Below, in pieces: positions 2,469 to 38,561 of a stretch of 64,000 bases of DNA. Under the pieces are notes generated by a model. It saw only the letters and a program-made list of their open reading frames with translations. It had not been told where the DNA came from and made no database searches. Numbering within the stretch: position 1 is the stretch's first letter; each line of letters begins with the position of its first letter. This DNA comes from Trinickia sp. (lineage in GTDB: Bacteria; Pseudomonadota; Gammaproteobacteria; Burkholderiales; Burkholderiaceae), in NCBI RefSeq assembly GCF_051953405.1, contig NZ_JBQCIV010000136.1, forward strand, positions 1-64,000. Direction: 5' to 3'. Position numbers and translations under genes: made by a program.

Positions 2469-3911
2469 CTAAGGACGAGCCCGTCTGGCCGTGGGTGCAA
2501 AGCGACGGATGCGTCGACTGCGATGTGCGGCCGTCAGCGTCCGAGCGAAAAGGCGCAGCACCTTTGCCATCAACAAAAACGAATTTGATGTTAGTTCACC
2601 GCTCGCCAAATCATTCCTGAAGTTTGCGCTCCTGATAAACGGGCGAAGCATATGTCGGTTCTCGGTCCATAGAGCGTGACGATGTGCGCTGCGAGCGCTG
2701 GGCGTATGATCGCGTGCGGCATTCGTAGCCACTCCTTCCTTTAACTGATCCAGGTAGTCTGCCCACGACTGCATCATGACGACACGGTCGTCGAGGAATT
2801 TAGTCCGGTTGTAGGCGGTCCCCAGATTGTCGGGAACCCTGTGTGCCAGTTGGAGCTCGATGACCTCGGCCGGAAACCGCAGGCGCTCATGCAAAATCGT
2901 TCGTGCCATAGCGCGGAAGCCGTGGCCGGTGATCTCGGTCTTCGTGTCAAAGCCGAGCCGTTGCAACGCCGCATTTATCGCGGCTCCGCTCATCGGCTTC
3001 CTGCGGTCGCGCCCGGGAAATACGAACTGCCAGCGTCCAGTAAGTGCGTGCAGTTCCTTCAGTATTTCGATCGCTTGATCGGCCAACGGAACAAGGTGTT
3101 CGGTCTTCGTCTTGGAAATGGTGTAGCGCCATTCTCTCCGGTCGAAGTCGACCTGTGACCATTCTGCCTGTCGTAGCTCGCCCGGGCGAACGAACAGCAT
3201 CGGTGCTAGCCGCAGTGCCGCGCCCACGACGAACGTGCCGGCGAAACCGTCTAAGGCGCGCAGCATTTCCCCAACTTTGCTTGGGTCCGTCAGGGATGCA
3301 AAGTGCGTGTGCCTATTAGGCCGCAATGCGCCGCGTAAATCGGAGGTAACGTCACGTAAGGCGCGTCCAGTTGCTACAGCGTAGCGGAAGACCTGCCCGC
3401 ACGTCTGATGGAGGCGGTGCGCGGTGTCATTCGCACCACGCGCCTCGGCCCGGCGCAACACGTCGAGCACTTCAGGTGCGGATATTTCCGAAATTGGGCG
3501 CGCGCCCAACACCGGGAATGCGTCTTTCTTGAGCCGCCCGATGATTTTGTCTCGGTGGCTGGCAGACCATACGGGGGTTTGCCGCTCCAACCACTCTAAC
3601 GCGACGACCCTGAACGTATTCGCGGTGCTAAGTTTGGAGAGTCGTTTCTTTTCTTTCTTGGCCTGGCTCGGATCGATGCCGTCCGCGAGCATGGCGCGCG
3701 CTTCGTCTCGCCTCCTACGGGCGTGGGCGAGTGTCACGTCAGGATAGACGCCGAGTGCGAGCCTCTTCTCTCGGGCGTTGAACCGGTATTTGAGCCGCCA
3801 GTATTTTCCACCTGACGGCGAGATCTCGAGATACATTCCGCGGCCATCCGAGATTCGGTACGTCTTTTCTCGCGGTACCGCCCGGCGAACTTCGAAGTCG
3901 GTAAGAGGCAT
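2469..3911 (-). CDS. int: P4-like tyrosine integrase (DUF4102 arm-binding N-terminus plus phage integrase catalytic domain) with an ~85-aa non-homologous C-terminal extension
   Basis: MPLTDFEVRRA...YRISDGRGMYLEISPSGGKYWRLKYR N-terminus; HGFRAMARTIL...LAHRV...AYNRT catalytic H/R/Y; WADYLD near the native end. GGAGG SD 6 nt upstream of ATG 3911. Confidence 0.85.
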   Translation of the reverse strand: MPLTDFEVRRAVPREKTYRISDGRGMYLEISPSGGKYWRLKYRFNAREKRLALGVYPDVTLAHARRRRDEARAMLADGIDPSQAKKEKKRLSKLSTANTFRVVALEWLERQTPVWSASHRDKIIGRLKKDAFPVLGARPISEISAPEVLDVLRRAEARGANDTAHRLHQTCGQVFRYAVATGRALRDVTSDLRGALRPNRHTHFASLTDPSKVGEMLRALDGFAGTFVVGAALRLAPMLFVRPGELRQAEWSQVDFDRREWRYTISKTKTEHLVPLADQAIEILKELHALTGRWQFVFPGRDRRKPMSGAAINAALQRLGFDTKTEITGHGFRAMARTILHERLRFPAEVIELQLAHRVPDNLGTAYNRTKFLDDRVVMMQSWADYLDQLKEGVATNAARDHTPSARSAHRHALWTENRHMLRPFIRSANFRNDLASGELTSNSFLLMAKVLRLFARTLTAAHRSRRIRRFAPTARRARP

Positions 3912-4001
3912 GAGGTACCTCCGTCTGTGCTGGACACCACGAAACTGCTCGACGGTGCCTCGCGCGATGTGACCGGGGCATTGCATCCCCCGATCATTGC
4001 T

Positions 4002-5360
4002 TCATGGTTCAAACTTGATCTTCGCTTGTTCAAGCATCCAAGCTTCAATTTTGTCGTGCCACGTACGTAACAGGTCGAGAGGGCGACGCCGGTAGTGTTT
4101 CTCAGCGATCGCGGATGGCTTATGCCCCTGGATTTGTGCGACGACACCTACCGGAACCTCGACCCACTCGGACAACGTTCCGAATGATCGGCGCAGACCA
4201 TGCAGTGAAATGTGCGGCAGCCCAGTCGGCCCTAGCGCTCGGTTGTGCGCGTGACGCGGTTCAGCAATTTTCCCGTCTGCTGCAGTCTTGCTGGTGAAGA
4301 CCCACTCGGACGGCTCCCACTGTTCGCCCCTTTGAGAGAGGCGGGCGGCTTGGCGCTTATTTGGGGGCATCTCGTTGAGACGTTGGAGAATCCGCAATAG
4401 GCTCGCCAAGTATGGAGTGAGCGGGATAGTTCGGCCGCCGGTGCCTTCAACCTTGTCGTTCATAGTCAAGCTTCGCCAGCGGAAGTCCACGTCTTCCCAA
4501 CGCAGTGCTGCTAGCTCTTCTCGACGGGCGCCGGTAATCAAGAGGCCTTGGAGATACGCGCTGATCACCGGATTGGCGATGCCACGTACCGCGCTGAACC
4601 AGACCGACAATTGCTCGCGCTGAAGACAGTCATCCTTCGCGGCGCTACGAGGGAGAATTCCTTTGACCTTTGGTGAAGCATAGGCTTCGTGCGGGATGAT
4701 GCTTGCATACGTCTCGTGAGTGTCACACCACCGGATGAACGCCTTGAAGAGACCGAACGCATGACCGGCATTCGTCGGCCCGCGAGGTATTTCGGCCTCG
4801 AGCCACTCGGACATGGATGCCGCGGTGATCTCGGTCAACTTGCGCGCCATGAGCGGAGCCAATGGGCCACGCACTTTTTCTTTGCCGCCGCGTTGTGCAA
4901 TCCCACCGCCGGGCGACGAGAGGTTGATATGGTCGAGGATGTATCGCTCAGACCGAGGCTTCTTTGTTTTCGGGGAAATTTTCGTCCGAAGGTGTTCAAG
5001 ATACTGTTCCCATGCTTCGCCGACTGTTACGTCCTGGCGCTTCTTGGCGGCCTGCCGTGCTTCGTGCGCCGCCTTCTGTTCGGCCTCACGCTCCCGTGGA
5101 TCGACGCCTTCGTCTATGAGCGTCTGGAGACTTCTCGCTCGCTCCTGCGCTTGATCGATGGTCCAGCTTCGTGGATCGCCAATGGTGATCCGCACTGTCG
5201 CGCCGTGAATTTTCCCTTGGAAGATGTACGCCTTGGCGCCTCCAGTAGTGGCGCGCAAACCAAGCCCCGGGGTCTTGCTGTCCCATAGGAACGACTGCGA
5301 CTTACCTTCGCTGCAGCGATGCCCTTCTACGCGAGCTGCCGTGAAATTTACCTTGGCCAT
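4002..5360 (-). CDS. second tyrosine recombinase/integrase (DUF4102-like N-terminus, different family from the first)
   Basis: FLWDSKTPGLGLRATTGGAKAYIFQ arm-type N-terminus; HGLRRSFGT...EKHYRRR catalytic region; GAGG SD upstream of ATG 5360. Confidence 0.85.
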   Translation of the reverse strand: MAKVNFTAARVEGHRCSEGKSQSFLWDSKTPGLGLRATTGGAKAYIFQGKIHGATVRITIGDPRSWTIDQAQERARSLQTLIDEGVDPREREAEQKAAHEARQAAKKRQDVTVGEAWEQYLEHLRTKISPKTKKPRSERYILDHINLSSPGGGIAQRGGKEKVRGPLAPLMARKLTEITAASMSEWLEAEIPRGPTNAGHAFGLFKAFIRWCDTHETYASIIPHEAYASPKVKGILPRSAAKDDCLQREQLSVWFSAVRGIANPVISAYLQGLLITGARREELAALRWEDVDFRWRSLTMNDKVEGTGGRTIPLTPYLASLLRILQRLNEMPPNKRQAARLSQRGEQWEPSEWVFTSKTAADGKIAEPRHAHNRALGPTGLPHISLHGLRRSFGTLSEWVEVPVGVVAQIQGHKPSAIAEKHYRRRPLDLLRTWHDKIEAWMLEQAKIKFEP

Positions 5361-5536
5361 CCAGCAACCTCATTCTTGGGTCTGCGATTCCGTGTAACCG
5401 CTGTGTAACCCGATTATGCGGCAGTGGAGGGATGTGGATCAACATCAATCGCGGGATGGATTGCGGATAGTCCTTCAAATACAATGACTTGATGAGGGCG
5501 ATCAAAGTCAATCTATCTCAAGAAATGTCGACTTGT

Positions 5537-5586
5537 TCGTATTCGCAATGCGAAGGTCGGGAGTTCGATCCTCCTCCGCTCCACCA
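5537..5586 (+). tRNA. partial tRNA-like sequence (anticodon stem-loop with loop TTCGCAA, variable loop AGGTC, T-arm GGGAG/TTCGATC/CTCCT, acceptor 3' strand CCGCTCC, discriminator A, CCA). The 5' acceptor strand is absent, so this is most likely a displaced tRNA 3' segment or att core
   Basis: Manual folding: anticodon stem TCGTA/TGCGA pairs, U33 and A37 present, T-arm canonical and ends in ACCA. No GGAGCGG acceptor partner upstream and the D-loop lacks GG. Confidence 0.5.
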
Positions 5587-5599
5587 ACGGGATTCGAAA

Positions 5600-5633
5600 G
5601 GGCTACAGGAAGGTTTTTCCTGTAGCCCTTTTT
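5600..5633 (+). terminator. rho-independent terminator (12-bp perfect stem GGGCTACAGGAA/TTCCTGTAGCCC, 5-nt loop, TTTTT tail) 14 nt after the tRNA-like CCA end
   Basis: Perfect inverted repeat followed by a T-run, read directly from the sequence. Confidence 0.8.
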
Positions 5634-5788
5634 CCTTGTGGGGGCCACGACTCGTTCGTTTTCGCAGGTAGGCTGCCCCGCCTGCCTCAGCCTCCGAAAC
5701 GCAGGTCATCGCACTCGGCTTCCCCGTGGTGAATCCGTCACGGAACTCCCCGAGGCGGAATGCGCCGCGAAGCGATCCGCTCTTCACC

Positions 5789-6394: not shown

Positions 6395-7462
6395 ATGTTC
6401 AGCGTTCGACTTCACCGGGCCCGTAAGGCAGCTGGACTATCCCTGCGCGATCTGGGCGAACGCGTCGGCGTTTCCCATGCAGCCGTTAAGAAGTACGAGG
6501 ACGGCCTCGCTATGCCGTCCAGTGACGTTCTGCTGGGGCTATCGCGGGCGCTCAAGGTGCGTTCCGAATATTTCTTTCGCCCGGAACCCGTTGCGCTCGA
6601 GCGAATTGAATACCGCAAGCACAGCTCGTTGCCGAAGAAGCGGCTAGAAGCGATTACGCATGAAGTGATCGATCAAATCGAACGCCGCATCGAGCTGGAA
6701 AATCTCTTCCCTCAGTCGCCGGTGAAGGCTTTTGCTCCGGTTGATGGTTTGCCGGCGTGCATCGCCGCGTTGGAGCAGATCGAGGAAGTTGCCGAGCGTG
6801 TCCGCAATGCGTGGAACCTGGGCTTTCATCCGATTCCCGATCTAATCGACGCTCTCGAAACCAACGGTATCCGAGTTTTCATGATCGATGCGGACGGCGA
6901 GAACAAGTTCGATGGCCTTGCGGCGCGCGTGAATGGCATGCCGATTGTCGTCGTGGGTGGGCATTGGCCAGGGGATCGCCAGCGCTTCACGCTTGCGCAT
7001 GAACTTGGCCATTTGATGCTCGAGGGCCGTTTGCCGGCGGATATAGACGAGGAATTGGCTTGTAACCGTTTTGCAGGTGCTTTCCTGTTTCCGCGTGCTT
7101 CGGTACTTCAGGAGCTTGGACAGTTTCGAAATGCAATCGAACTGAAGGAACTCGGGCTACTGAAGGAGGAGTTCGGCCTATCGATGGGGGGGATCCTCTA
7201 CCGCGCCCGCGATCTCGGCGTCATATCGCCCGCCTACCGTGACGAGCAGGCCAAGCTTTTTCGCCTTAAGGGCTGGTATCAAAAGGAACCGGGGCGCGAG
7301 TTCCCACCGGAAAAGGCGCATCTGTTCGAGCAGTTGGTGTTTCACGCCCTGGCAGAGGAATACATCGGCGAATCGAAGGCCGCAGAACTCATGAATCTGT
7401 CTCTCGTGCAGTTCCGGCGTGTCCGCTCGATGGAGGGCGGCGATGCTGCTGTTGATCAGTGA
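6395..7462 (+). CDS. Xre-family HTH fused to an ImmA/IrrE (M78, COG2856) Zn-metallopeptidase domain
   Basis: N-terminal HTH (LSLRDLGERVGVSHAAVKKYEDG); HEXXH motif HELGHLML in the C-terminal domain. 355 aa. Confidence 0.85.
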   Translation: MFSVRLHRARKAAGLSLRDLGERVGVSHAAVKKYEDGLAMPSSDVLLGLSRALKVRSEYFFRPEPVALERIEYRKHSSLPKKRLEAITHEVIDQIERRIELENLFPQSPVKAFAPVDGLPACIAALEQIEEVAERVRNAWNLGFHPIPDLIDALETNGIRVFMIDADGENKFDGLAARVNGMPIVVVGGHWPGDRQRFTLAHELGHLMLEGRLPADIDEELACNRFAGAFLFPRASVLQELGQFRNAIELKELGLLKEEFGLSMGGILYRARDLGVISPAYRDEQAKLFRLKGWYQKEPGREFPPEKAHLFEQLVFHALAEEYIGESKAAELMNLSLVQFRRVRSMEGGDAAVDQ

Positions 7463-7946
7463 CGCGAACATTTTGATGGATGTGGAAGTGGGTGACCTCG
7501 TGGCGCCGATGTTCAGTCTCGGTTACCAGTTCGCGGTGCCCGACGTCCTGTATTACGAAGAGTTGGAGGAGCAGCACGCTCACTTGCTGGACATGGGTTT
7601 GCAACCTCGTTCGCTTTCGGCCAAGAGCGTTGAGCGGGTTCAGGCGTTGGCGCAGACGTATTCGAGACCGGGGCGTAATGACTTGTTCGCGCTCGCATTG
7701 GCGGAAGCCGAGGCATGCCCCTTGTTGACAGGCGATGCAGCGCTAAGGCAGGCCGCCGAGGCGGAGAAAGTCGAGGTTAAGGGTACGATTTGGCTCATCG
7801 GAGAGATGGTGAGGGAGCGACGCATCACGGTGGCGGTGGCCCGAGCTGCTCTGAATAAAATGCGTCTCAGAGGACGGCGATTGCCGTGGGACGCGGCTGA
7901 ACGAATGCTCGTGGCGCTTGATATGGCGCGGCCCCAAGGGGCTTGA
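7443..7946 (+). CDS. PIN-like DUF4411-family protein, overlapping the upstream Xre-ImmA gene by 20 nt
   Basis: MLLLISDANILMDVEVGDL PIN-like N-terminus; GGAGGG SD 5-6 nt upstream of ATG 7443; the ImmA plus DUF4411 pairing is a known conserved gene neighbourhood. Confidence 0.65.
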   Translation: MLLLISDANILMDVEVGDLVAPMFSLGYQFAVPDVLYYEELEEQHAHLLDMGLQPRSLSAKSVERVQALAQTYSRPGRNDLFALALAEAEACPLLTGDAALRQAAEAEKVEVKGTIWLIGEMVRERRITVAVARAALNKMRLRGRRLPWDAAERMLVALDMARPQGA

Positions 7947-8138: not shown

Positions 8139-10379
8139 ATGCAAAATGCAAACCACCAAAACCTAGTCGGATTCATCTGGAACATTGCCAATAAACTGCG
8201 CGGCCCGTACCGTCCGCCGCAGTACCGCCGCGTCATGTTGCCACTGATCGTTCTTCGTCGCTTCGACCTGGTGTTAGCCGAGAACAAGCAGAAGGTGCTG
8301 GACGAGAAGAAGCGTCTGGAAGCCAAGGGCATTACCGGCCATGCGTTGGAAAAAGCCCTCTCGCGTATCGCGGCTACGGGCCGCAAGCAGGAGCTATATA
8401 ACATCAGCGGCTTTACATTTGAAAAGCTGTTGGGCGACGCGCCTAACATCGCGGGCAACCTGATTTCCTACATTCGCGGCTTCTCGCCACGTGCTCGGGA
8501 CATTTTCGATAAGTTCGAATTTGAAACAGAAATCGCAAAGCTAGATGAAGCCAACCGCCTTTACCTGATCATCAAAGAGTTCTGCTCCGCGGACATCAAC
8601 CTCTCACCCAGGGTCATCAGCAATTTACAGATGGGCTACCTGTTTGAGGAACTGGTGCGCAAGTTTAACGAGCAAGCCAACGAAGAGGCCGGGGACCACT
8701 TCACACCGCGGGAAGTTATTCGCCTCATGGTGCAACTGCTGTTTACCGGCGAGGACGGCATCTATGAGAAGGGCATCTACCGCAGCGTGTACGATCCAAC
8801 TGCTGGCACGGGTGGCATGCTGTCCGAATCCGAAAAATTCATTTGTGGTGATGGCTTTACCACTGGGCTCAACCCAGACGCCAACATTGAACTGTTTGGC
8901 CAGGAATACAACCCGGAGTCTTATGCGATCTGTTGCTCTGACTTGCTGATCAAGGACGAGCCAATCAACAACCTGATTTACGGCGACACCCTCGGCATCA
9001 AGGACGCGAAAAACAAGACCAATGGCTTTGTGCCGCACGACGGACACCCGGACAAGAAATTCCACTACATGCTGGCCAACCCGCCGTTCGGCGTGGAGTG
9101 GAAGCCGGAAGAGGCCTTCGTGCGCGACGAATATGCAGATCAGGGCTTCTCTGGTCGCTTCGGCGCGGGGTTGCCCAGGATCAACGATGGCTCACTGCTC
9201 TTCCTGCAGCACATGATCTCGAAAATGCATCAGCCTCCCAAGTTGGTTGATGGAACGAACATGGGCGGTGACGGCTCGAAAATCGCCATTGTGTTTAACG
9301 GCTCTCCTCTGTTCACCGGCGATGCAGGATCAGGCGAGTCCAATATCCGTCGTTGGATTATTGAACGCGATATGCTCGATGCTGTCGTCGCTTTGCCGGA
9401 TCAGATGTTCTATAACACGGGCATCTACACCTATGTCTGGATCGTGACCAATAAGAAACCGATCCATCGCCGAGGTACGGTGCAACTGATCGACGGCACG
9501 CGCCATTTCAAAAAGATGGACAAGAGCCTAGGTAATAAGCGCAACGAGCTTTCTGATGAGCACATCAAAGAATTGGTGCGCCTATACGCCGAGCACCGAC
9601 ATGACGCCGTGAGCGATGCGCTAGCGGACGGCAAGCCCGAATCACGTGTTTGCAGCAAAATCTTCGAGAACCGGGACTTCGGCTACCTCAAGATCACGGT
9701 GGAGCGCCCCCTGCGTATGAACTTTCAGGCGAGCGCGGAGCGGATCGCTAAGCTGAATGATCAGGCTGCGTTCGTCAACCTAGCCAATAGCAAGAAGCGC
9801 AAGAGTGAAGCGGCTTATGCGGCCGAGGTTGCAGAGGGTAAAGAGACCCAAGCTGCCATTAAATCGGCCTTGGAGGGTATCGATGATGAAATGCTGTATC
9901 GCAACCGCCCTGAGTTCGAAGCGGAGATCGAACGAGCCCTGAAGCACGCGGGTCTTAAGGTGGCCGCTGCGGTCAAGAAGGCGATTCTGACGGCCCTGTC
10001 GGAGCGAGATCCAGGCGCCGAAATATGCTTGGATGCCAAAGGCAGGCCGGAGCCCGATCCTGAGCTGCGGGATACGGAAATCGTTGGCCTACCACAAGAT
10101 ATCGACCTGCCGCTGCCGTTGGGCTACGACAACGAAACCGGGCACGACAAGCTGTTGGCTCTGGTACGAGACCACTGTGAAGACTACCTGCGGGCCGAAG
10201 TCCTGCCGCACGTTGCGGATGCCTGGATCGATCATAGCAAGACCAAGGTTGGCTACGAAATCCCGCTCACGCGGCATTTCTACGTCTATGAGCCGCCGCG
10301 TCCGCTCGATGTGATAGCGGGCGAAATCAGTCAGTTGGAAAAAGAGATCATGGCCATGCTCAGTGAGGTGGTGCGATGA
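8139..10379 (+). CDS. hsdM: Type I restriction-modification DNA methyltransferase subunit HsdM (N6-adenine), long form of 746 aa
   Basis: NPPFG motif (MLANPPFGVEWKPEE); AdoMet-binding region; N-terminal HsdM domain; stop overlaps the hsdS start (ATGA). Confidence 0.95.
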   Translation: MQNANHQNLVGFIWNIANKLRGPYRPPQYRRVMLPLIVLRRFDLVLAENKQKVLDEKKRLEAKGITGHALEKALSRIAATGRKQELYNISGFTFEKLLGDAPNIAGNLISYIRGFSPRARDIFDKFEFETEIAKLDEANRLYLIIKEFCSADINLSPRVISNLQMGYLFEELVRKFNEQANEEAGDHFTPREVIRLMVQLLFTGEDGIYEKGIYRSVYDPTAGTGGMLSESEKFICGDGFTTGLNPDANIELFGQEYNPESYAICCSDLLIKDEPINNLIYGDTLGIKDAKNKTNGFVPHDGHPDKKFHYMLANPPFGVEWKPEEAFVRDEYADQGFSGRFGAGLPRINDGSLLFLQHMISKMHQPPKLVDGTNMGGDGSKIAIVFNGSPLFTGDAGSGESNIRRWIIERDMLDAVVALPDQMFYNTGIYTYVWIVTNKKPIHRRGTVQLIDGTRHFKKMDKSLGNKRNELSDEHIKELVRLYAEHRHDAVSDALADGKPESRVCSKIFENRDFGYLKITVERPLRMNFQASAERIAKLNDQAAFVNLANSKKRKSEAAYAAEVAEGKETQAAIKSALEGIDDEMLYRNRPEFEAEIERALKHAGLKVAAAVKKAILTALSERDPGAEICLDAKGRPEPDPELRDTEIVGLPQDIDLPLPLGYDNETGHDKLLALVRDHCEDYLRAEVLPHVADAWIDHSKTKVGYEIPLTRHFYVYEPPRPLDVIAGEISQLEKEIMAMLSEVVR

Positions 10380-11788
10380 GTCAACATCCTGCTTACCCGG
10401 AATATCAATTTACAGGATGCGATTGGTTTCCGGAAATCCCGTCACATTGGAAAATTGATCGGGCAAAATGGGCCATCTCTTCTTGTCAAAACGGTGTTTG
10501 GGGAACCGATCCGGATGGTGAGGACGACCTGGTTTGTGTTCGTGTTGCCGATTTCGATCGCCAGGCTCTACGTGTCTCCGCAGAAAAAGTTACGCTCCGG
10601 AGCATCGCAGAAAGAGAGAGCGCTGGCCGCTTGCTGCAAGCAGGCGATCTGCTGCTCGAAAAATCCGGGGGTGGTGAAAATCAATTGGTCGGGGCTGTTG
10701 TTGAATTCAATCAATCGTTTTCCGCTGTTACTTCAAATTTTGTTGCGAGATTGGCCGTTCGTGATGATGTAAACTCTCGTTTTCTCGTGTATGTGCATTC
10801 GCATCTGTATTCAGGGCGGGTCAATTTTAGATCAATTAAGCAAACGACAGGGATTCAAAATTTGGATGCCCGAGCGTATCTTGATGAGTTGATTGTATAT
10901 CCACCACTCTGTGAGCAAGACGCCATTGCTCGATTTCTTGATTTCAAAACGGCGCAAATCGATGCGCTGATCGCCAAGAAGAATGCGTTGCTAGCCAAGC
11001 TGGCAGAGAAGCGTATGGCGCTCATCAGCCATGTCGTCACCAAGGGGCTTGATCCGGCGACGCCGTTGGAAGAATCGGGGGTTGGCTGGTTGGGCGCGAT
11101 TCCTGTCGGCTGGACCACAAAGCGTATCCGATTCCTATTAACCATGAGCGGAGGGGTGACGCCAAGTACAGGTAACGCGGCGTACTGGGGCGGCGACATT
11201 CCGTGGATCACACCGAAAGATATGAAGCATGAGGCACTGTCAGGATCGATAGATACACTGACCGATGAGGCTATTAACGAAACAGGAATTACCCTACACC
11301 CATCAGGCCGGGTTTTGATTGTTGTCAGAGGAATGATCTTGGCGCATACTTTCCCTGTGGCTACGAATCTTGTGTCCGCAACAGTGAATCAAGATATGAA
11401 GGTTTTGAATACAGATATGAATAATCAATATTTGGCGTTGTTGCTGAAAGGGATTCAGCCGATCATTCTGAGTCTTGTGGAGGAGTCGGCGCATGGCACG
11501 AAGGTGCTGCGCACAGATGTTTTCAAAAATATCTATCTTCCTGTTCCCCCGGATAATGTTCAGGCGGAAATTGTAGGCCAAGTGCATCGTTGGCTGGCGG
11601 GGCTAGATGCTCAAGTTCGCAGTGTTGAATCAGTAATTGATCGTCTTCGAGAGTATCGTTCGGCGATAATAAGTAACGCTGTTACTGGAAAAATAGATGT
11701 TCGTGACTTTTTATTTCCTATGTCAAAAGACGTTAAGGGCGCGAGACGGGAGTGTCGGGATAGCCGAACCACTGAAGCGATTAACTGA
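10376..11788 (+). CDS. hsdS: Type I R-M specificity subunit HsdS (two target-recognition domains)
   Basis: Typical HsdS architecture with a central conserved coiled region (AQIDALIAKKNALLAKLAEKRMALISHVVTKGLDP) and visibly AT-richer TRD regions; translationally coupled to hsdM. Confidence 0.9.
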   Translation: MSQHPAYPEYQFTGCDWFPEIPSHWKIDRAKWAISSCQNGVWGTDPDGEDDLVCVRVADFDRQALRVSAEKVTLRSIAERESAGRLLQAGDLLLEKSGGGENQLVGAVVEFNQSFSAVTSNFVARLAVRDDVNSRFLVYVHSHLYSGRVNFRSIKQTTGIQNLDARAYLDELIVYPPLCEQDAIARFLDFKTAQIDALIAKKNALLAKLAEKRMALISHVVTKGLDPATPLEESGVGWLGAIPVGWTTKRIRFLLTMSGGVTPSTGNAAYWGGDIPWITPKDMKHEALSGSIDTLTDEAINETGITLHPSGRVLIVVRGMILAHTFPVATNLVSATVNQDMKVLNTDMNNQYLALLLKGIQPIILSLVEESAHGTKVLRTDVFKNIYLPVPPDNVQAEIVGQVHRWLAGLDAQVRSVESVIDRLREYRSAIISNAVTGKIDVRDFLFPMSKDVKGARRECRDSRTTEAIN

Positions 11789-11796
11789 ACGGCCGA

Positions 11797-14700
11797 ATGC
11801 CACGCATTGAGAGGGCGAGAAAAGTGCACAAAGAAATCGACTTCGAAAACGGCATGGAGGACGCGCTCGTCAGTATTGGCGGCTACGAGCAACGTGACTC
11901 GAACGGCTACGATCTGGAAACCGCGTTGTTCCCGGCTGATGTAGTCGCCTTTGTACAAAAAACGCAACCCAAAATCTGGAGCCGCCTGACTCAACTGGAT
12001 GCCGCCAAAGCATCCGCCATGCTGCTGGACAGCTTGGTGAAGGAGCTTGCTGCCAAGGGGGCGCTCGCGATTTTGCGTGAGGGTTTCAAGTGCGTGGGCA
12101 AGACGGTGCGGCTGGCTTACTTCGCGCCGAACACCGGGTTGGACCCGACAAGTACCGAACGGTACGGCGACAACCGCCTGATCATCGTACGACAGGTGAA
12201 GACGAAGAGCGGAGCCATCCCCGACGTAGTCTTGGCCATAAATGGATTGCCGATAGCGACGCTGGAGCTAAAGAACCCGATGTCGGCGACGCGCTGGAAC
12301 GTGGAGCACGCTAAACACCAGTACAAGTTCGAGCGAGATCCGAAGGAGTTGTTGTTCGCCTTCAAGCAGCGCTGCCTTGTGCACTTCGCGGTGGATACCG
12401 AGCAGGTCGCAATGACCACCAAGCTGGAGGGCAAGGACACCGTTTTCCTGCCGTTCAACCTCGGGCACAACCACGGGGCAGGTAATCCACCCGCGGCGGG
12501 TGATGTACGCACCACCTACCTTTGGAATAAGGTGCTAACCCGCGACAGTTTGATGGACATCCTGGCGCGCTTTATCCATTTGAATGTCGAGGAGAAGACT
12601 GTCGTCACCGAGAAGGGCATCAAGCGCCACCGCAAGGAGACAATGATTTTCCCGCGCTACCATCAACTCGATGCGGTGCGCGCGCTGACCGATCACGCCC
12701 AAGTACACGGTTCGGGTCACAACTACCTCATCCAGCATTCCGCCGGATCAGGGAAATCAAACTCGATCGCTTGGCTTGCGCACCGACTGTCGAGTCTGCA
12801 CGACGCTAACAACGAAAAGATCTTTCATTCCGTGGTGGTGATTACCGATCGGCGCGTGCTAGACCAGCAATTGCAAAACACCATCTTCCAGTTCGAGCAT
12901 AAGCTGGGCGTTGTGCAGAAGATCGATGAAAATACGCAACAATTGGCCAAGGCGTTGGCCAATGGCGTGCCGATCATCATCTCGACCATTCAGAAATTTC
13001 CGTTTATCACCCAGGCCATCCGAACAATGGAAGCCAACGGCAGGGGTGTCGCCATCTCGACCGCAGGCAAGCGCTTCGCCGTGATTGTGGATGAGGCCCA
13101 CAGTTCACAAAGTGGCGAAACCGCCATGGAGCTACGCAAGATTTTGAACAAGGACGGCATCGAATCTGCCATCGCCGAGCAGTTGCTCGACATAGACGAC
13201 GACGCTTTGAGCGACGAAGCAAAGAAGGAACTATTGCGCGAACAACTCAAGCGTGCCAAGCAGCCGAACTTGAGCTTCTTCGCCTTTACCGCAACACCAA
13301 AGTTCAAGACGCTGGCTGTCTTCAATGAACCGGGCCCCGATGGCAAAGCGCCGTTCCACCAGTACAGCATGCGCCAGGCCATTGAAGAAGGATTCATCCT
13401 TGATGTATTGGCGCACTACACCTGCTACAAGCGCTATTACCGGTTGATCCAGACGGCGGAGGCAGATCCCGAAGTGCCACGCCGGAAAGCTGCACGCGCT
13501 CTTGCTCGATTCGTTGAGTTTCACGACTACGAGATTGCCCAGAAGGTCGAGGTGATTGTCGAACATTTTCGCACTCATACCCGGCATAAGATCGGCGGAC
13601 GAGCCAAAGCTATGGTCGTGACGGGTTCGCGTGAGCACGCCGTGCGATACAAGCTCGGGTTCGACAAGTACCTCAAGGATAAGGGTTATACCGACGTGAA
13701 ATCGTTGGTCGCGTTTTCGGGCGAGATTACGCTTAAGGAGTTCGCCGACAAAAAATTCACCGAAGTAAGCATGAACAACGGCATCAAAGAATCCGAGCTA
13801 CCGGAAAAGTTCAACACTGAGGAGTATCAGGTTCTGCTTGTGGCCGAGAAATACCAGACTGGCTTTGACCAGCCGCTGTTGCACAGCATGTACGTCGACA
13901 AGCGTCTCGCTGGAATTCAGGCCGTGCAGACCCTGTCACGCTTGAACCGCACTACCCGCGGCAAGAACGACACCTTCGTACTCGACTTCGTCAACGAGCC
14001 TGGCGACATCCACACTGCGTTCAAGCCATACTACGAGGCGACGGATAAAGGGGACGACACTGATCCGCAGCAACTCAATACGCTGGAGCATTTGCTGGCA
14101 GGATGGAAGGTATTCACGCGTGAGGAAGTCGATGCCTGGTGCGAAATATGGTTCCGTAATCGCCTAAACCCGACGGGCGGCGAACATAAGAAGCTAAATG
14201 GCCTGCTTGACTTGGCGGTCGAGCGTTTCGCACAATTGGAAGAAGAGGATCAAAACCTCTTCAAAGGGCAACTGGTCAGCTTTCGCAATCTCTACGCCTT
14301 TGTCTCGCAAATCGTGCCGTACCAGGACTCGGATCACGAGAAGCTATACACCTACGCTCGCTTCCTCCTGACTAAGCTGCCGCGCACGACGGACAACCAG
14401 ACAGTCCAAGTCGACGATGAGGTTGAGCTTAAGTATTACCGGCTACAGAAGATCAGCGAGGGGGGCATCGACTTGAAAGCCGGTGAGGCTGACGAGTTGG
14501 GAGGGCCGACCGAGGTCGGTACCGGCCAAGCTGACGAAGAGGTTCAGCTTTCGACGTTGGTGGGCAGGCTCAATGAGCGCTTCGGCACAGAGTTCACCCC
14601 TGCGGATCAACTCTTTTTTGATCAGGTTCGTGAGACGGCCGTCGCCAATGAGCATTTGCGACATGCGGTCATGGCCAACAGCATCGAAAACTTCGAGCCT

Positions 14701-14856
14701 GTGTTCAACAAACAGCTCGAAAACCTGTTCATTGAGCGTATGGACGGCAACGAAGAAATCTTCATACGCCTGATGAACGATGAGGCGTTCAGGAATATCG
14801 CTGCCAGTCACCTCATGCGAGCCGTGTATAGTCAGATCAAGTCCGCTGGCGGCTGA
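11797..14856 (+). CDS. hsdR: Type I restriction enzyme endonuclease/helicase subunit HsdR
   Basis: SF2 helicase motifs (SGSGKSNS Walker A; VIVDEAHSSQ DEAH box); 1019 aa; directly follows hsdS. Confidence 0.95.
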   Translation: MPRIERARKVHKEIDFENGMEDALVSIGGYEQRDSNGYDLETALFPADVVAFVQKTQPKIWSRLTQLDAAKASAMLLDSLVKELAAKGALAILREGFKCVGKTVRLAYFAPNTGLDPTSTERYGDNRLIIVRQVKTKSGAIPDVVLAINGLPIATLELKNPMSATRWNVEHAKHQYKFERDPKELLFAFKQRCLVHFAVDTEQVAMTTKLEGKDTVFLPFNLGHNHGAGNPPAAGDVRTTYLWNKVLTRDSLMDILARFIHLNVEEKTVVTEKGIKRHRKETMIFPRYHQLDAVRALTDHAQVHGSGHNYLIQHSAGSGKSNSIAWLAHRLSSLHDANNEKIFHSVVVITDRRVLDQQLQNTIFQFEHKLGVVQKIDENTQQLAKALANGVPIIISTIQKFPFITQAIRTMEANGRGVAISTAGKRFAVIVDEAHSSQSGETAMELRKILNKDGIESAIAEQLLDIDDDALSDEAKKELLREQLKRAKQPNLSFFAFTATPKFKTLAVFNEPGPDGKAPFHQYSMRQAIEEGFILDVLAHYTCYKRYYRLIQTAEADPEVPRRKAARALARFVEFHDYEIAQKVEVIVEHFRTHTRHKIGGRAKAMVVTGSREHAVRYKLGFDKYLKDKGYTDVKSLVAFSGEITLKEFADKKFTEVSMNNGIKESELPEKFNTEEYQVLLVAEKYQTGFDQPLLHSMYVDKRLAGIQAVQTLSRLNRTTRGKNDTFVLDFVNEPGDIHTAFKPYYEATDKGDDTDPQQLNTLEHLLAGWKVFTREEVDAWCEIWFRNRLNPTGGEHKKLNGLLDLAVERFAQLEEEDQNLFKGQLVSFRNLYAFVSQIVPYQDSDHEKLYTYARFLLTKLPRTTDNQTVQVDDEVELKYYRLQKISEGGIDLKAGEADELGGPTEVGTGQADEEVQLSTLVGRLNERFGTEFTPADQLFFDQVRETAVANEHLRHAVMANSIENFEPVFNKQLENLFIERMDGNEEIFIRLMNDEAFRNIAASHLMRAVYSQIKSAGG

Positions 14857-14942: not shown

Positions 14943-15884
14943 CTACAGTGCATCACCTTCGAAGTAGTCGGAGTCGATCTTCTTGATATAAAAAGTGCTA
15001 ACGGCCGAAACGCCGACATTGTGGTCCACCATCAACTGCACGAGTTGTTCCCCATCGACGAGGATGATCTTTGACGCAATGATGCCGGCGTATTCCTTCG
15101 CTTCCCGAGTGAACGAGGAGGTCGTAATAAAGACCCCCTTGTTGGCTCGTTGTCCCTGCAGCGCCCCGGCGAACTTCTGAATTTCAGGCCGGCCGACAGG
15201 TCCTTCCCACTTTTTTGCTTGCACGTAGATAACGTCCAGGCCCAGCTTGTCTTCCTTGATAGTGCCGTCGATTCCGCCGTCCCCGCTGCGCCCAATGACG
15301 CTCCCCGCGTCCTGCCGTGATCCGCCGTACCCCATCGCCACCAATAGGTCGATAACCAACCTTTCGAAGAAGCCAGGCGTAGAAGCCTTAACTTGATCCA
15401 GCAACTCGGTCTCCAGCCCATTCCGCAGCCGCTGGTACGCTTGCGCGAAGGACTCTTCCGGCGTTGCTTCATCGACCTCGCATAAAGGCAGCGCTCCCGG
15501 CGGCGAAGTCGAAACCTCACCGGCTTGTCCCTCATTGTTTCTCTTTCGCCGAAATGCGATGAACTCCGGATATTGCTCAAGAGTACCGTTGTCGATTCGG
15601 GCGGGGTGTTGCGCAAGTAAGGCGTTACCACGCTCGGTGATGTTGAAGTAGCCTCGCTTCCGCGATTCGACAACGCCAGCTTGTTTCAGGTACGTTCGCG
15701 CCCACCCCACCCTATTGTCGAATACCGGTGCTGTGCCACTCGGGAGAAGCGTGTTCCGCTCTTCGTCGGTAAGCTCACATTCGTCGGCGAGCGTATCGAC
15801 AACGCTGCGAAATCGATGTTCTTGTCCGTCGCCGACAGCACGCAATACGGGGAGCATCAGGGTTTGGTAGTCCGGGATCGGCAT
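14943..15884 (-). CDS. mrr: Mrr-family Type IV (modification-dependent) restriction endonuclease
   Basis: N-terminal winged-helix MPIPDYQTLMLPVLRAV plus C-terminal Mrr_cat PD-(D/E)xK region (GDGGIDG...VQAKKW). Confidence 0.9.
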   Translation of the reverse strand: MPIPDYQTLMLPVLRAVGDGQEHRFRSVVDTLADECELTDEERNTLLPSGTAPVFDNRVGWARTYLKQAGVVESRKRGYFNITERGNALLAQHPARIDNGTLEQYPEFIAFRRKRNNEGQAGEVSTSPPGALPLCEVDEATPEESFAQAYQRLRNGLETELLDQVKASTPGFFERLVIDLLVAMGYGGSRQDAGSVIGRSGDGGIDGTIKEDKLGLDVIYVQAKKWEGPVGRPEIQKFAGALQGQRANKGVFITTSSFTREAKEYAGIIASKIILVDGEQLVQLMVDHNVGVSAVSTFYIKKIDSDYFEGDAL

Positions 15885-33220: not shown

Positions 33221-33299
33221 AAGCATCAATTGTTTGGTCGATGCCGATGCGTTCGTCGGTTGCCGGCGCGGCCTTCCCATCTTCGTTTTCGAGGTCCCC

Positions 33300-34652
33300 A
33301 TGTCCTACGTATTTCATCGGATGCCGAACAAGCCGCTGCCCGTGGCGGTGGCCGGAGACGGTATCGAAGTCATCGATTCGGCCGGCAAGCGTTACATCGA
33401 CGCGAGCGGCGGCGCGGCGGTGTCGTGCCTTGGCCATAGTCATCGGCGCGTGACCGACGCCATCGAACGGCAGGCGCGCCAGCTTGCCTACGCGCACACG
33501 TCGTTTTTCACTACGCAGGCGGCCGAGGCGTTGGCCGAGCGGCTCGTGGTGACGGCGCCGGCCGGCATCGGCCATGCCTATTTCGTGTCGGGCGGTTCCG
33601 AGGCGGTCGAGGCTGCGCTCAAGCTCGCGCGTCAGTACTTCGTCGAAATCGGCCAGCCCGAGCGTCGGCATTTCATCGCGCGCCGGCAGAGCTACCACGG
33701 CAATACGCTCGGCGCGCTGGCCATCGGCGGCAACGCGTGGCGCCGCGAGCCGTTTCTGCCGCTGCTGATCGAAGCGAACCACGTGAGCCCCTGTTATGCC
33801 TATCGTGGCCGGTTGTCCGGCGAATCCGACGAGGCCTACGCGCAGCGCCTCGCCGACGAACTCGAACAAAAGATTCTCGAACTGGGCCCCGATACGGTGG
33901 CGGCCTTCGTGGCCGAGACGGTGGTCGGCGCGACGATGGGCGCCGTGCCGCCTGTGCGCGGCTATTTCCGCAAGATGCGCGAGGTGTGCGACAAGTACGG
34001 CGTCCTGTTGATTCTCGACGAAGTGATGTGCGGCATGGGGCGCACGGGTTACCTCTACGCGTGCGAGGAAGAGGGCATCGCCCCCGATTTGCTGACGATC
34101 GCCAAGGGGCTCGGCGCCGGCTATCAGCCGATCGGTGCCACGCTCGTCGGCAATCGCATTTACGATGCGATCGTCGAGGGCTCGGGCTTCTTCCAGCACG
34201 GCCACACGTACATGGGTCACGCAACCGCCTGCGCCGCTGCGCTCGAAGTGCAGAACGTCATTGCAGACGAGGATTTGTTGCCGAACGTCAGGGCGCGCGG
34301 CGAGCAACTGCGCGCGACCTTGCGCGATCGGTTGGGCGACCATCCGTATATCGGGGACATTCGAGGCCGAGGCTTGTTCGTCGGCGTCGAATTCGTGCGC
34401 GACCGCGAGCGCAAGACACCGTTCGATCCCGCCTGCAAGCTCAACGCAGTCATCAAGCGCGAAGCGATGGCGCGCGGCCTCATGGTCTATCCGATGGGCG
34501 GTACCATCGACGGCAAGCAAGGCGATCACGTTTTGCTAGCGCCGCCGTTTATCTGTACGCCTAACGATATCGAACGCATTGCGGAGCGCTTGCACGATGC
34601 CGTGAGCGCTGCGCTGGCCGACGCCGGGGCATCGACGGAGGCCAGCCGTTGA
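33300..34652 (+). CDS. class III (omega) aminotransferase, PLP-dependent
   Basis: LILDEVMCGMGRTG PLP-lysine region; overall AT-III pattern. Confidence 0.9.
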   Translation: MSYVFHRMPNKPLPVAVAGDGIEVIDSAGKRYIDASGGAAVSCLGHSHRRVTDAIERQARQLAYAHTSFFTTQAAEALAERLVVTAPAGIGHAYFVSGGSEAVEAALKLARQYFVEIGQPERRHFIARRQSYHGNTLGALAIGGNAWRREPFLPLLIEANHVSPCYAYRGRLSGESDEAYAQRLADELEQKILELGPDTVAAFVAETVVGATMGAVPPVRGYFRKMREVCDKYGVLLILDEVMCGMGRTGYLYACEEEGIAPDLLTIAKGLGAGYQPIGATLVGNRIYDAIVEGSGFFQHGHTYMGHATACAAALEVQNVIADEDLLPNVRARGEQLRATLRDRLGDHPYIGDIRGRGLFVGVEFVRDRERKTPFDPACKLNAVIKREAMARGLMVYPMGGTIDGKQGDHVLLAPPFICTPNDIERIAERLHDAVSAALADAGASTEASR

Positions 34653-34690
34653 ACCATACTGCTGCCATGCGGCCCGAAGAAGGACACACG

Positions 34691-35263
34691 ATGAAGGCGA
34701 AAGGCACCACCGACGCACGGCTACCGGAGTTCGATCGCGCCGCCGCCAGCCCCGAGCAACTGGCCGTGTTGGACGAAATCCTATCGGGGCCGCGCGGCAA
34801 CCTCGCGGGTCCGTTCCTAGCGTGGATCGCCAGCCCGGATCTCGCCCAACACGCGCAGCGGCTCGGTGCATTCTGCCGGTATCGCACGGGGTTGCCGTTG
34901 CGGCTTTCCGAGTTGGCGATTTTGGTGACGGCGGTCAGGTGGCGCGCGCAAGCGGAGTGGCTGATTCACTATCCGATCGCGATCGAAGCGGGGGTGCCGG
35001 ATGCCGTCGCGCAGGCCCTGCTCCAGGGGCGACGCCCCGATTTCGACGATGCGGACGACGCGCTGATCTACACTTTCGCAACCGAACTCTACGACGCCAA
35101 GCGTGTGTCCGATCCGATCTTCCAGCAGGCCGTCCAGCGTTTCGGCCACGAAACCACCGTTAATCTGGTGGGCTTGCTCGGCTATTACGCTTTGGTTGCC
35201 ATGACGCTGAACGTATTCGCCATGCGCACTGAAAGCGACATGCCTTTGCCATTCGCGGAGTAA
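34691..35263 (+). CDS. carboxymuconolactone decarboxylase (AhpD-like) family protein
   Basis: CMD-family pattern; AAGGA SD before ATG 34691. Confidence 0.7.
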   Translation: MKAKGTTDARLPEFDRAAASPEQLAVLDEILSGPRGNLAGPFLAWIASPDLAQHAQRLGAFCRYRTGLPLRLSELAILVTAVRWRAQAEWLIHYPIAIEAGVPDAVAQALLQGRRPDFDDADDALIYTFATELYDAKRVSDPIFQQAVQRFGHETTVNLVGLLGYYALVAMTLNVFAMRTESDMPLPFAE

Positions 35264-35370
35264 GCGTGCGTGCCGTCGTCGGATCTGAAGGATGCACTGA
35301 GCGCCGACCGTGGGAGGCAGCCGTGCAGGCTGCGCGACCCAAAGCCCGATAACGTTCGGCACGCTCGCCA

Positions 35371-35447
35371 TGAGCCATGAGCCATGAGCCATGAGCCATG
35401 AGCCGTCAGGCATGAGCCGTCAGCCATGAGCCATGAGCCATGAGGCC
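35371..35447. repeat. heptanucleotide tandem repeat (TGAGCCA consensus, 11 units, some variants)
   Basis: Read directly; begins 1 nt beyond the stop codon of the DUF2182 gene, between convergent genes. Confidence 0.9.
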
Positions 35448-35448
35448 G

Positions 35449-36231
35449 CTAGGGGCGGCCGATTGCCTGCGCAGCTACGCACCCTCCGGTTATCACGACG
35501 GCGACGCCGATAGCGCGAGCCGTTTTGCCCCGCGCGGGGACGAAGCGCTCCAAGCTCATGGCCGCCGTGATCGCGGCCATCGCGAGCGGATCGATCACGC
35601 CGACGAGCAGCAGGACCATCATCCAATTCGCGCAGCAAAGACCGCCCTCGAACGCTAGCCGAAAGCCGAACCGACACGCCGTGCGCAAATCGATCGCTTC
35701 TCTGCGACTACGCATGCGCGGGTTTGCGCAGCGGGCGATTTGGCGTGCTTTCCATTCGGTGAATTGAACCGCGCCGGCGAGCGCGATCAGGAGCCCCGCC
35801 ACGAGCGGCACCGGGCGAGCGAGCGGGGCCGCGCTCGGCAAGATCGCCGCCAAGGCATCGCCGCCGACGAACACGACCGCACCGGCCGCGGCCCACGCGA
35901 GCGCATAGGCAACGAACGCCGCAAGCATGACGCTCGCCGCCATGGCGCACGGGGCGCCGCGCACGCGTTGCTGAAGCCACCCCCACTCCGGTAGCGACAT
36001 CGGCAGCATCATCGCCGCCATCATGGCGGTCCACATGCCGACGAACGATGTTGCGGCGCCAAGCCACGTCTGACCGCACATGGGTGTCCAGAGCGCCGAC
36101 ATCGACCATCCGCCCGGCATCGGCACCGCCCCCATCTCGGACATCGATCGGCATGCGCAAATAGAGACGGTGGCCCCGGCGATAGCGGCGAGCGCGATCA
36201 GCCAGCCGCGAGACCGGGGCGCGGCCGGCAT
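35449..36231 (-). CDS. DUF2182-family integral membrane protein (predicted metal-binding)
   Basis: Multi-TM, Met/Cys/Trp-rich pattern typical of DUF2182; conserved partner DUF899 gene upstream. Confidence 0.7.
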   Translation of the reverse strand: MPAAPRSRGWLIALAAIAGATVSICACRSMSEMGAVPMPGGWSMSALWTPMCGQTWLGAATSFVGMWTAMMAAMMLPMSLPEWGWLQQRVRGAPCAMAASVMLAAFVAYALAWAAAGAVVFVGGDALAAILPSAAPLARPVPLVAGLLIALAGAVQFTEWKARQIARCANPRMRSRREAIDLRTACRFGFRLAFEGGLCCANWMMVLLLVGVIDPLAMAAITAAMSLERFVPARGKTARAIGVAVVITGGCVAAQAIGRP

Positions 36232-36240
36232 GGCCGGAGA

Positions 36241-36350
36241 CGACCCCAGCGACGACCCCGGCGACGACCCCGGCTACGACACAATCGCCGAAGCGCTCGC
36301 CGAAGCGCCCGCCGAAGCGCTCGCCGAAGCGCTCGCCGCCCGAGCGCGCC
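36241..36350. repeat. two adjacent 12-mer tandem repeat arrays (GACGACCCCGGC x3; GCCGAAGCGCTC x4) in the region upstream of the DUF2182 gene
   Basis: Read directly. Confidence 0.85.
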
Positions 36351-36389
36351 CGTGCTCGAAGCAAATCTCGCAGCCGTCCACGATCGGCC

Positions 36390-37154
36390 TCACCGCTGCG
36401 CATACTCGTCGTGGCGCTTCCACCAGACGCCGGTTTCGTTGCGGCCGAGCGGCGCGCGATCGAGCAGCGCATACATGCCCCAGATCGCATCGACCCCGCG
36501 AGCATAGGTCGAATACGTGTGATAGACGACGCCATCCTCGAGTACGAACGCGCTCAGGCCCGGCCGATCGCGCGCGTAAGTTTTCGCATCGGTGCCGCAC
36601 GTGGCGGCAAACTGCCGGACGGGCTCGGGCGCCGGTTCGGCATCCATCGCATGGCGACCGCGGTGATAGTTGTACTCGATCTCGCCGTCGCGTTGCTGCA
36701 TCTCGGTGAAGGAGACGTTGAAGTCGAAGTTGAAATCGCTATCGCCCGAACTCGCCCAAGGAAACGACCATCCCATCCGCCGCTTGTACCCGAGCAGCTT
36801 GTCGATCGGCGCGCGCGACACGGCCGTCAGCGTGACGTCGTGTTCGGCGAGATGGGCGACCGAGCCGTTGAAGGAATCGGCGACGGCGGAGCAGGACGGA
36901 CATCCCGCCTTGTAGTCGGGGCCGAACATGAAGTGATAGACGAGCAGTTGCGAGCGCCCTTCGAACAGATCCGGCAGCGAGACGGCGCCGCGCTCGGTAT
37001 CGAAGCGGTACGCGCGTTCGACGCGTACCCAAGGCAATGCCTGCCGCTGGCGCGCGAGTTCGTCGCCGCGGCGCGTGAAAGCTTTCTCGGCCGCGAGCAG
37101 CTCGAGGCGGGCGGCCAGCCATTGGTCGCGTGTTCCGGTTGCATGAGTCGTCAT
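36390..37154 (-). CDS. DUF899-family thioredoxin-fold protein
   Basis: CPSC motif (KAGCPSCS) and family pattern; GGAG SD before ATG 37154. Confidence 0.75.
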   Translation of the reverse strand: MTTHATGTRDQWLAARLELLAAEKAFTRRGDELARQRQALPWVRVERAYRFDTERGAVSLPDLFEGRSQLLVYHFMFGPDYKAGCPSCSAVADSFNGSVAHLAEHDVTLTAVSRAPIDKLLGYKRRMGWSFPWASSGDSDFNFDFNVSFTEMQQRDGEIEYNYHRGRHAMDAEPAPEPVRQFAATCGTDAKTYARDRPGLSAFVLEDGVVYHTYSTYARGVDAIWGMYALLDRAPLGRNETGVWWKRHDEYAQR

Positions 37155-37330
37155 GGTTTGCTCCATTGGATGGTTCGGATGGGTGCTGAATCGTCAATCG
37201 CATGGCGCGGAGGCCGGCGATTGCCTGAGCCGGCCGCTTACGCGACGGCTGTCTACATGTCGCGACATGTCACGTGCTAGATTAGTGACCGCCATCGAAC
37301 GGAGGGAGTGACAAGTGTGGCGGGATTCGG

Positions 37331-38551: not shown

Positions 38552-38561
38552 GATCGGTGCC

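Follow-up and report, generated by a model that had tools for sequence, protein, structure and literature searches.

What is the tRNA-like segment at 5537–5633 in this DNA of Trinickia sp., and what does it separate? The stretch that was analysed, hereafter called the window, comprises 64,000 nucleotides (contig NZ_JBQCIV010000136.1, positions 1 to 64,000) and contains two integrase genes directly to the left of the segment. The original prediction took it for the 3′ part of a tRNA that was displaced when an integrase inserted an island at a tRNA gene, followed by the terminator of that gene. This raises the questions whether the segment is a relic or a functional RNA gene, which tRNA gene was the target, which of the two integrases acted on it, and whether the DNA to its right is the ancestral chromosome.

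Identity of the tRNA fragment

The 45 nt at 5542–5586 (+ strand, TTCGCAATGCGAAGGTCGGGAGTTCGATCCTCCTCCGCTCCACCA) match positions 32–76 of intact tRNA-Ala(CGC), from T32 to CCA76, at all 45 positions. They comprise the anticodon loop TTCGCAA, the 3′ strand of the anticodon stem, the variable loop AGGTC, the T-arm, the acceptor strand CCGCTCC and ACCA. With the five preceding nucleotides the segment 5537–5586 (+) reads TCGTA-TTCGCAA-TGCGA-AGGTC-GGGAG-TTCGATC-CTCCT-CCGCTCC-A-CCA, and the anticodon is CGC. U70 of the alanine identity pair G3:U70 is kept. The 32-mer covering T-arm and acceptor did not occur in any of 100 shuffles of the window.

A scan of genome contigs with one genome per species detected the 45-mer in at least 120 loci of Beta- and Gammaproteobacteria. 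Among the matches listed, it is preceded by GGGGCGGTAGCTCAGCTGGGAGAGCGTCGCG in at least 114 loci, giving an intact tRNA-Ala(CGC), while six loci hold the fragment without the 5′ half. ARAGORN called tRNA-Ala(cgc) in 5 of 5 tested loci that have GGGGCGGTAGCTCAGCTGGGAGAGCGTCGCG together with the 45-mer. The window copy belongs to the fragments: the 5′ 31 nt of the tRNA are absent, and the 31 nt found upstream instead are unrelated to the tRNA-Ala(CGC) gene. Thus both the 3′ fragment and the lack of a 5′ acceptor strand were correctly predicted, although the missing strand is GGGGCGG in the intact gene and not GGAGCGG, as had been expected. At 5537–5541 the window has TCGTA in place of the gene's TCGCG, and TCGTA is still able to pair with TGCGA.

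A strong terminator stands after the fragment, and a permissive Rfam search within the tRNA/tmRNA clan gave a single match, to tmRNA, at 5453–5586 (13.6 bits, E = 0.0035). Both would suit a functional small RNA gene, be it an unusual tRNA, a tRNA-like RNA or a tmRNA (ssrA) of which this would be the 3′ end. The Rfam match, however, aligns the T-arm and the acceptor only, its score falls far short of the gathering score of 47, and at the gathering threshold the fragment had no Rfam match. ARAGORN reported 0 tRNAs and 0 tmRNAs in the whole 64-kb window, so that an intact tRNA, which would have made this a normal gene, is called here by neither program. Neither the full cloverleaf of a functional tRNA, with paired acceptor stem and D arm, nor the 5′ acceptor strand, tag frame and pseudoknots of a tmRNA are present. 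The anticodon arm, and indeed the entire 45-nt block, belongs to tRNA-Ala(CGC), the 50-nt fragment folds no better than shuffled sequences (z = −0.9), and the acceptor end is degenerate in other genomes (see below). A functional RNA gene is exceedingly improbable on these grounds. What remains is tRNA 3′ identity with the rest of the gene absent, as in a displaced fragment. The identification as tmRNA, resting on the weak 13.6-bit match, was rejected.

An 89-aa open reading frame without a family match (5518–5787, − strand) runs over the fragment and the terminator. It is probably spurious and carries a risk of mis-annotation.

The terminator hairpin

Downstream of the fragment, GGGCTACAGGAA (5600–5611) pairs perfectly with TTCCTGTAGCCC (5617–5628) in a 12-bp G+C-rich stem, which is lengthened to 16 bp by A–T pairs and followed by five T residues (5629–5633). 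The hairpin has a minimum free energy of −30.1 kcal/mol (z = −6.2), and none of 200 shuffled sequences was as stable. The element at 5596–5633 (+ strand) therefore has the G+C-rich hairpin and the T-run of an intrinsic terminator, as had been predicted, and because of the A-run on its left it may be bidirectional. A simple terminator-pattern scan did not list this hairpin; we take this to be due to the stem, which takes up part of the T-run.

The first ~60 nt past CCA align with the DNA downstream of intact tRNA-Ala(CGC) genes in Burkholderia spp. and Trinickia fusca. Window positions 5542–5646 are 84% identical to the tRNA and terminator of T. fusca (L079), in which the stem is formed by GGGTTACAGG...CCTGTAACC. 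The leader ACGGGATTCGAAAGGGCT matches five Burkholderia loci (L083, L008, L053, L070, L112) that have the form ACGG(A/G)ATTCGAAAGG(G)CT in common, and the native terminator sequence in the window includes GGGCTACAGG. In one further locus (L082) the Burkholderia version of the terminator stands after a displaced fragment and not after an intact gene. Occurrence both after intact genes and after a fragment is the behaviour expected of the native chromosomal flank (B′). Fold and homology (T. fusca L079; Burkholderia L083, L008 and L053; L082) thus support the view that 5596–5633 is the original terminator of the tRNA-Ala(CGC) gene, which is what the original prediction had assumed. Beyond the terminator the DNA is atypical.

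In some other genomes a different insertion was observed at this place: downstream of an intact tRNA-Ala(CGC), another element has entered the native terminator within its hairpin loop (L054, 3537–3640; also L097, L112 and L070). The insertion junction reads ...GGCTCGATCGCAA/TGAGACAGGGAGCATATTTTTGCCCCAAGTGCAAAGATATGC, with the slash marking the junction. In L054 the end of this element has a gene for a DUF4365-TPR protein but no integrase within 4.4 kb.

Linkage of the fragment to the integrase gene int1

The integrase gene next to the fragment, int1 (4002–5360, − strand), encodes an IntF-type tyrosine integrase of 452 aa with the Pfam domains Arm-DNA-bind_3 (PF13356, DUF4102) and Phage_integrase (PF00589). 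The protein is 52% identical to IntF of E. coli K-12 over its full length (E = 6e-162) and thus combines an N-terminal arm-binding domain with full-length similarity to IntF. Homologues with 83–94% identity are present in Paraburkholderia, Caballeronia and Burkholderia. As expected for an integrase gene inside an island near one of its ends, int1 begins (start codon at 5360) 181 nt from the fragment, which is on the opposite strand.

The same arrangement is found in eight other loci with int1 homologues: Paraburkholderia madseniana (L123, fragment at ~9776–9820), Paraburkholderia sp. D15 (L124), L125, P. silvatlantica (L129), B. gladioli (L131), Pararobbsia alpina (L136) and two metagenome contigs (L138 and L140). 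In all of them the fragment lies by the start codon of the integrase gene in the same orientation, with the left junction ACTTGTTCG(T/C)(A/T), and the spacing to the start codon was 172–183 nt in the five loci measured. None of the eight loci contains a callable tRNA, and 10 kb of island-side DNA next to each of eight int1 homologues showed no tRNA either. The displaced repeat postulated at the outset recurs beside the int1 homologue in every one of these loci. A B. arboris record, in which a 59%-identical int1 homologue lies in a 50-kb stretch, has neither tRNA nor fragment in that stretch and is therefore uninformative.

The boundary between island DNA and the tRNA identity block is at 5541/5542, since identity begins exactly at T32. 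The 11 nt on the island side, ACTTGTTCGTA (5531–5541, + strand), are invariant in the window, L123, L124, L125 and L138/L140 and carry one or two substitutions in L129, L131 and L136. The last five of them, TCGTA, stand for the 5′ anticodon-stem strand TCGCG, so that the dyad symmetry around the loop is kept. The junction sequence 5531–5541 is presumed to be a core-type half-site for integrase binding. The region between int1 and this half-site (5361–5530), which would be the P arm, contains direct repeats of GTGTAACC at 5392–5399 and 5403–5410, 11 nt apart, which are the only two copies in 64 kb and are candidate arm-type sites. The 19-mer with both repeats recurs unchanged in L123 and L124, and L125 has a near-identical version. 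The promoter scan gave a promoter-like site facing int1 on the − strand (5442–5413). The junction sequence had no match (0) in viral contigs.

We conclude that at 5531–5633 a genomic island of the IntF/CP4-6 type in tRNA-Ala(CGC) very probably has its attR junction (P-O-B′). Identity that begins with the anticodon loop, at T32, together with an island-derived pseudo-stem in front of it that keeps the dyad symmetry, places the site in the class of anticodon-centred att sites. Int1, the presumed recombinase, would have recombined an att site of the island, in which tRNA positions 32–76 are present as a copy, with the chromosomal tRNA-Ala(CGC) gene. Strand exchange would have been centred on the anticodon loop TTCGCAA, between the inverted repeat arms of the anticodon stem. 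The island's own copy of positions 32–76 would now complete the tRNA at its opposite, left end (attL), beyond the window, and the original chromosomal 3′ part with the native terminator would have been displaced to the right end, where the start codon of int1 is 181 nt away. DNA to the left of the crossover would accordingly belong to the island, and directly to its right would follow the 3′ part of the original tRNA gene together with the terminator. The island may still be able to excise.

One pattern counts against this reading in its simplest form, in which the fragment is a neutral relic. In all eight other loci T32 to C65 are invariant, whereas the last ~10 nt (3′ acceptor strand and ACCA) carry one to several changes, and among the int1-linked copies only that of the window is 45/45. 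Such constancy next to a changing acceptor end is not predicted by a neutral relic. It could mean that insertion was recent in the window and that decay has set in elsewhere, the conserved part being kept as a recombination site. In loci with a changed acceptor end, excision of the island would regenerate a defective tRNA. The constancy of T32–C65 might therefore reflect selection on attR, with excision leading to a defective tRNA and the island being locked in; the probability that we give to this goes with that of the dual-integrase module discussed below.

The second integrase gene

The int2 gene (2469–3911, − strand) encodes an unrelated, P4-like integrase of 480 aa, which has a Phage_int_M domain in addition to the two kinds of domain found in int1 (Pfam). 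It forms a tandem with int1, to which it shows ~21% identity. The int1-int2 tandem extends over 2469–5360 (−) in the window and occurs as well in P. silvatlantica (L129, 10001–12873; also in L130) and B. gladioli (L131, 6382–9334), with 70–100 nt between the two genes. Other int1 islands do not have int2.

The adjoining int2 counts against assigning attR to int1, because relatives of int2 also target tRNA-Ala(CGC). Homologues with 54–64% identity lie directly downstream of intact tRNA-Ala(CGC) in four loci (L077, L004, L103, L027), and a remnant of the int2 type follows a fragment in L101. Thus int2 might have created the junction, and int1 would be a passenger. In the four loci, however, the int2-type genes follow the intact tRNA gene and share its strand, a geometry opposite to that of the window, and in L123, L124, L125, L136 and L138 the fragment is present with int1 alone. 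Furthermore, it is to int1 that the spacing is constant and with int1 that the P arm is jointly conserved, and the 90-nt spacer between the two genes in the window contains no att-like DNA. We therefore rate an origin of the junction from int2 as highly improbable. The opposite geometry of the int2 relatives and the int1 islands without int2 point to int1 as the presumed cognate recombinase of the attR junction. The original prediction, which concluded from the two integrase genes that the segment probably marks the right boundary of the island, stands in so far as the island lies to the left and int1 is linked to the junction; int2 is not linked to it.

The tandem occurs in three Burkholderiaceae lineages. 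The int1 and int2 types of integrase, which are unrelated, are each independently tied to tRNA-Ala(CGC), though in opposite island geometries, so the tandem may be a functional dual-integrase module. Such a module might, for example, allow an island to enter or leave tRNA-Ala(CGC) arrays in either configuration. We give this idea, together with that of selection on attR, a low probability.

Island cargo and a probable second copy of the tRNA 3′ part

The visible cargo of the island spans 107–2197 (− strand), beside int2. It consists of a PAAR-like open reading frame (1841–2197, −, below the Pfam cutoff), a gene for a VRR-NUC nuclease (1095–1844, −) and a gene for a TsiV immunity protein (107–1333, −), the latter two assigned by Pfam; the cargo genes are also called on the Logan contig L121. 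The three genes resemble an orphan effector-immunity set of a T6SS. Structural genes for a T6SS are absent from the window, so what had been predicted as a T6SS cassette holds for this effector-immunity set and for nothing more within the window.

In the int1-type islands of other genomes (L123, L124, L125, L129, L131, L136, L138) the cargo varies and consists mostly of defence genes, including DUF4007, GmrSD, Dcm-Vsr, type I R-M, an N6/N4 methyltransferase with helicase, and an S8 peptidase with AAA ATPase. Such a change of mostly defensive cargo from genome to genome fits a family of mobile islands, and the prevalence of defence genes points to tRNA-Ala(CGC) as a possible hotspot of defence islands in the Burkholderiaceae.

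A second copy of the fragment, of another tRNA part or of the terminator was looked for in the window, and no match above 12 nt was obtained, all being at chance level. Neither the intact cognate tRNA nor the opposite end of the island is contained in the window, and no Paraburkholderia genome showed them either, which counts against the attR reading. Since the window holds no other copy, the intact gene, if present, lies to the left of coordinate 1. Contig breaks nevertheless point indirectly to its existence. The Logan contig L121 (SRR31762016) is 100% identical to the window and the only public contig with the exact int1; it ends at window position 5571, 30 nt into the identity block. The contigs L130, L137 and L139 also end exactly 30 nt into the block. 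Logan assembly uses k = 31. The base before T32 is G31 in the intact tRNA and A in the window. A break after 30 nt is what a graph with k = 31 gives where another sequence shares the block but is preceded by a different base.

DNA to the right of the terminator

To the right of the terminator two small open reading frames without family match are followed by genes for an HTH + ImmA/IrrE protein (6395–7462), a PIN/DUF3368 protein (7419–7946), a type I R-M system (hsdMSR, 8139–14856) and Mrr (14943–15884). This defence block (5.7–16 kb) has a GC content of 0.51–0.56 as compared to ~0.66 of the core, and is followed by ordinary-looking genes (~0.60–0.66). As the original prediction stated, the fragment separates the island from this block: the R-M genes are outside the int1 island, to the right of the native terminator. 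Nevertheless, low-GC, foreign-looking DNA on this side counts against a simple attR reading, and because of it the fragment is not a clean boundary between island and core.

The ancestral neighbours of tRNA-Ala(CGC) are found farther to the right. Genes for a class III aminotransferase, CMD, PpoB2 and DUF899 are located at 33234–39245, ~27–30 kb from the fragment. The class III aminotransferase gene neighbours the tRNA in L005, L011 and L056, and in T. fusca (L079) the order is tRNA, terminator, PpoB2 and DUF899, the last two corresponding to 35.4–39.2 kb of the window. Compared to those genomes the window thus has ~27 kb of extra DNA. For the Kup gene at 16.2 kb, a search for the empty site gave relatives that are not syntenic.

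The low GC content of the block with its type I R-M, Mrr and HTH-ImmA genes, and the ~27 kb in front of the ancestral neighbours at 33.2–39.2 kb, could be explained if the fragment marked a junction inside a tandem array of islands. The R-M block would then be a second island in tRNA-Ala(CGC) that has lost its own integrase and distal fragment. Tandem island arrays are recorded in Islander (PMC4383910), and in L123, L124 and L129 the fragment is indeed followed by P′-arm-like repeats and the terminator of another island. In the window, however, the ~60 nt past CCA share homology with the terminator found natively behind island-free genes and with no P′ arm of an island. Neither a second tRNA fragment of at least 12 nt nor an integrase-like sequence besides int1 and int2 was found in the window, and no repeats of at least 11 nt flank the low-GC block. 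A tandem array is therefore unlikely, and we retain the reading of the junction as the right end of the int1 island, followed by the native terminator.

Comparison with known systems

Displaced 3′ tRNA fragments are a standard signature of integrase-mediated islands, and for this reason no concept is changed by the present locus: it is a textbook island boundary and not a new type of element. The tRNA-Ala target, too, is already known in Burkholderia (GI11, PMC2612704). What is gained is one exact boundary of a mobile island (5541/5542), with its target, tRNA-Ala(CGC), and its presumed cognate integrase, the IntF-type int1. For annotation, this prevents a false pseudo-tRNA call for the fragment and sets the limit of the cargo with its T6SS effector-immunity genes. 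More generally, IntF-type islands that carry defence and toxin cargo are widespread at tRNA-Ala(CGC) in the Burkholderiaceae.

The junction agrees with the class of tDNA islands collected in Islander (Hudson, Lau and Williams 2015; PMC4383910), which show a displaced 3′ tDNA fragment at the island end, the integrase gene inside and identity from the anticodon loop. A 3′ tDNA fragment is present in 3760 of the 3919 islands of this collection, and the att site is anticodon-centred in 2083 of the 3919 (PMC4383910), so that the two features found here represent the most frequent case. As a difference, only the fragment end is visible in the window, and the end with the regenerated tDNA would be beyond it.

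In B. pseudomallei, tRNA-Ala is a known site of islands, namely GI11 and GI11.2 (PMC2612704). These share with the present island the family, the target, compared at the level of tRNA-Ala, and the direct repeat of the 3′ end (PMC2612704), but differ in cargo. A 'phage integrase' of B. pseudomallei (P0032) is 85% identical to int1. Canonical P4-like islands, as in L077, L004, L103 and L027, also have tRNA-Ala(CGC) as target and an integrase with an arm-binding domain. Their integrase gene follows the intact tRNA directly and on the strand of the latter, whereas that of the window lies by the fragment at the other end.

The same layout is seen in CP4-6 of E. coli K-12 MG1655, a cryptic prophage with the integrase IntF that is integrated in thrW, the gene for tRNA-Thr(CGU), and of which both ends can be seen. 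Intact thrW (262871–262946, +) is at the left end and intF (295696–297096, −) at the right end, and an exact 49-nt copy of thrW positions 28–76 follows at 297206–297254 (+), 109 nt beyond the start of intF. In MG1655 as in the window and its eight relatives, the integrase gene is distal to the tRNA, reads into the island and is divergent to the fragment, in which identity with the tRNA starts in the anticodon arm. The copy from anticodon arm to CCA thus lies beyond the integrase start on the opposite strand in both systems, with 49 nt at a distance of 109 nt in CP4-6 and 45 nt at 181 nt here, and the target anticodon arms are near-identical (TTCGTAATGCGAAGGTCG in thrW and TTCGCAATGCGAAGGTCG in the window). 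The window differs from CP4-6 in its target, tRNA-Ala(CGC), its host family, the Burkholderiaceae, its T6SS effector-immunity pair and its second, tandem integrase gene, and the two have no P-arm sequence in common.
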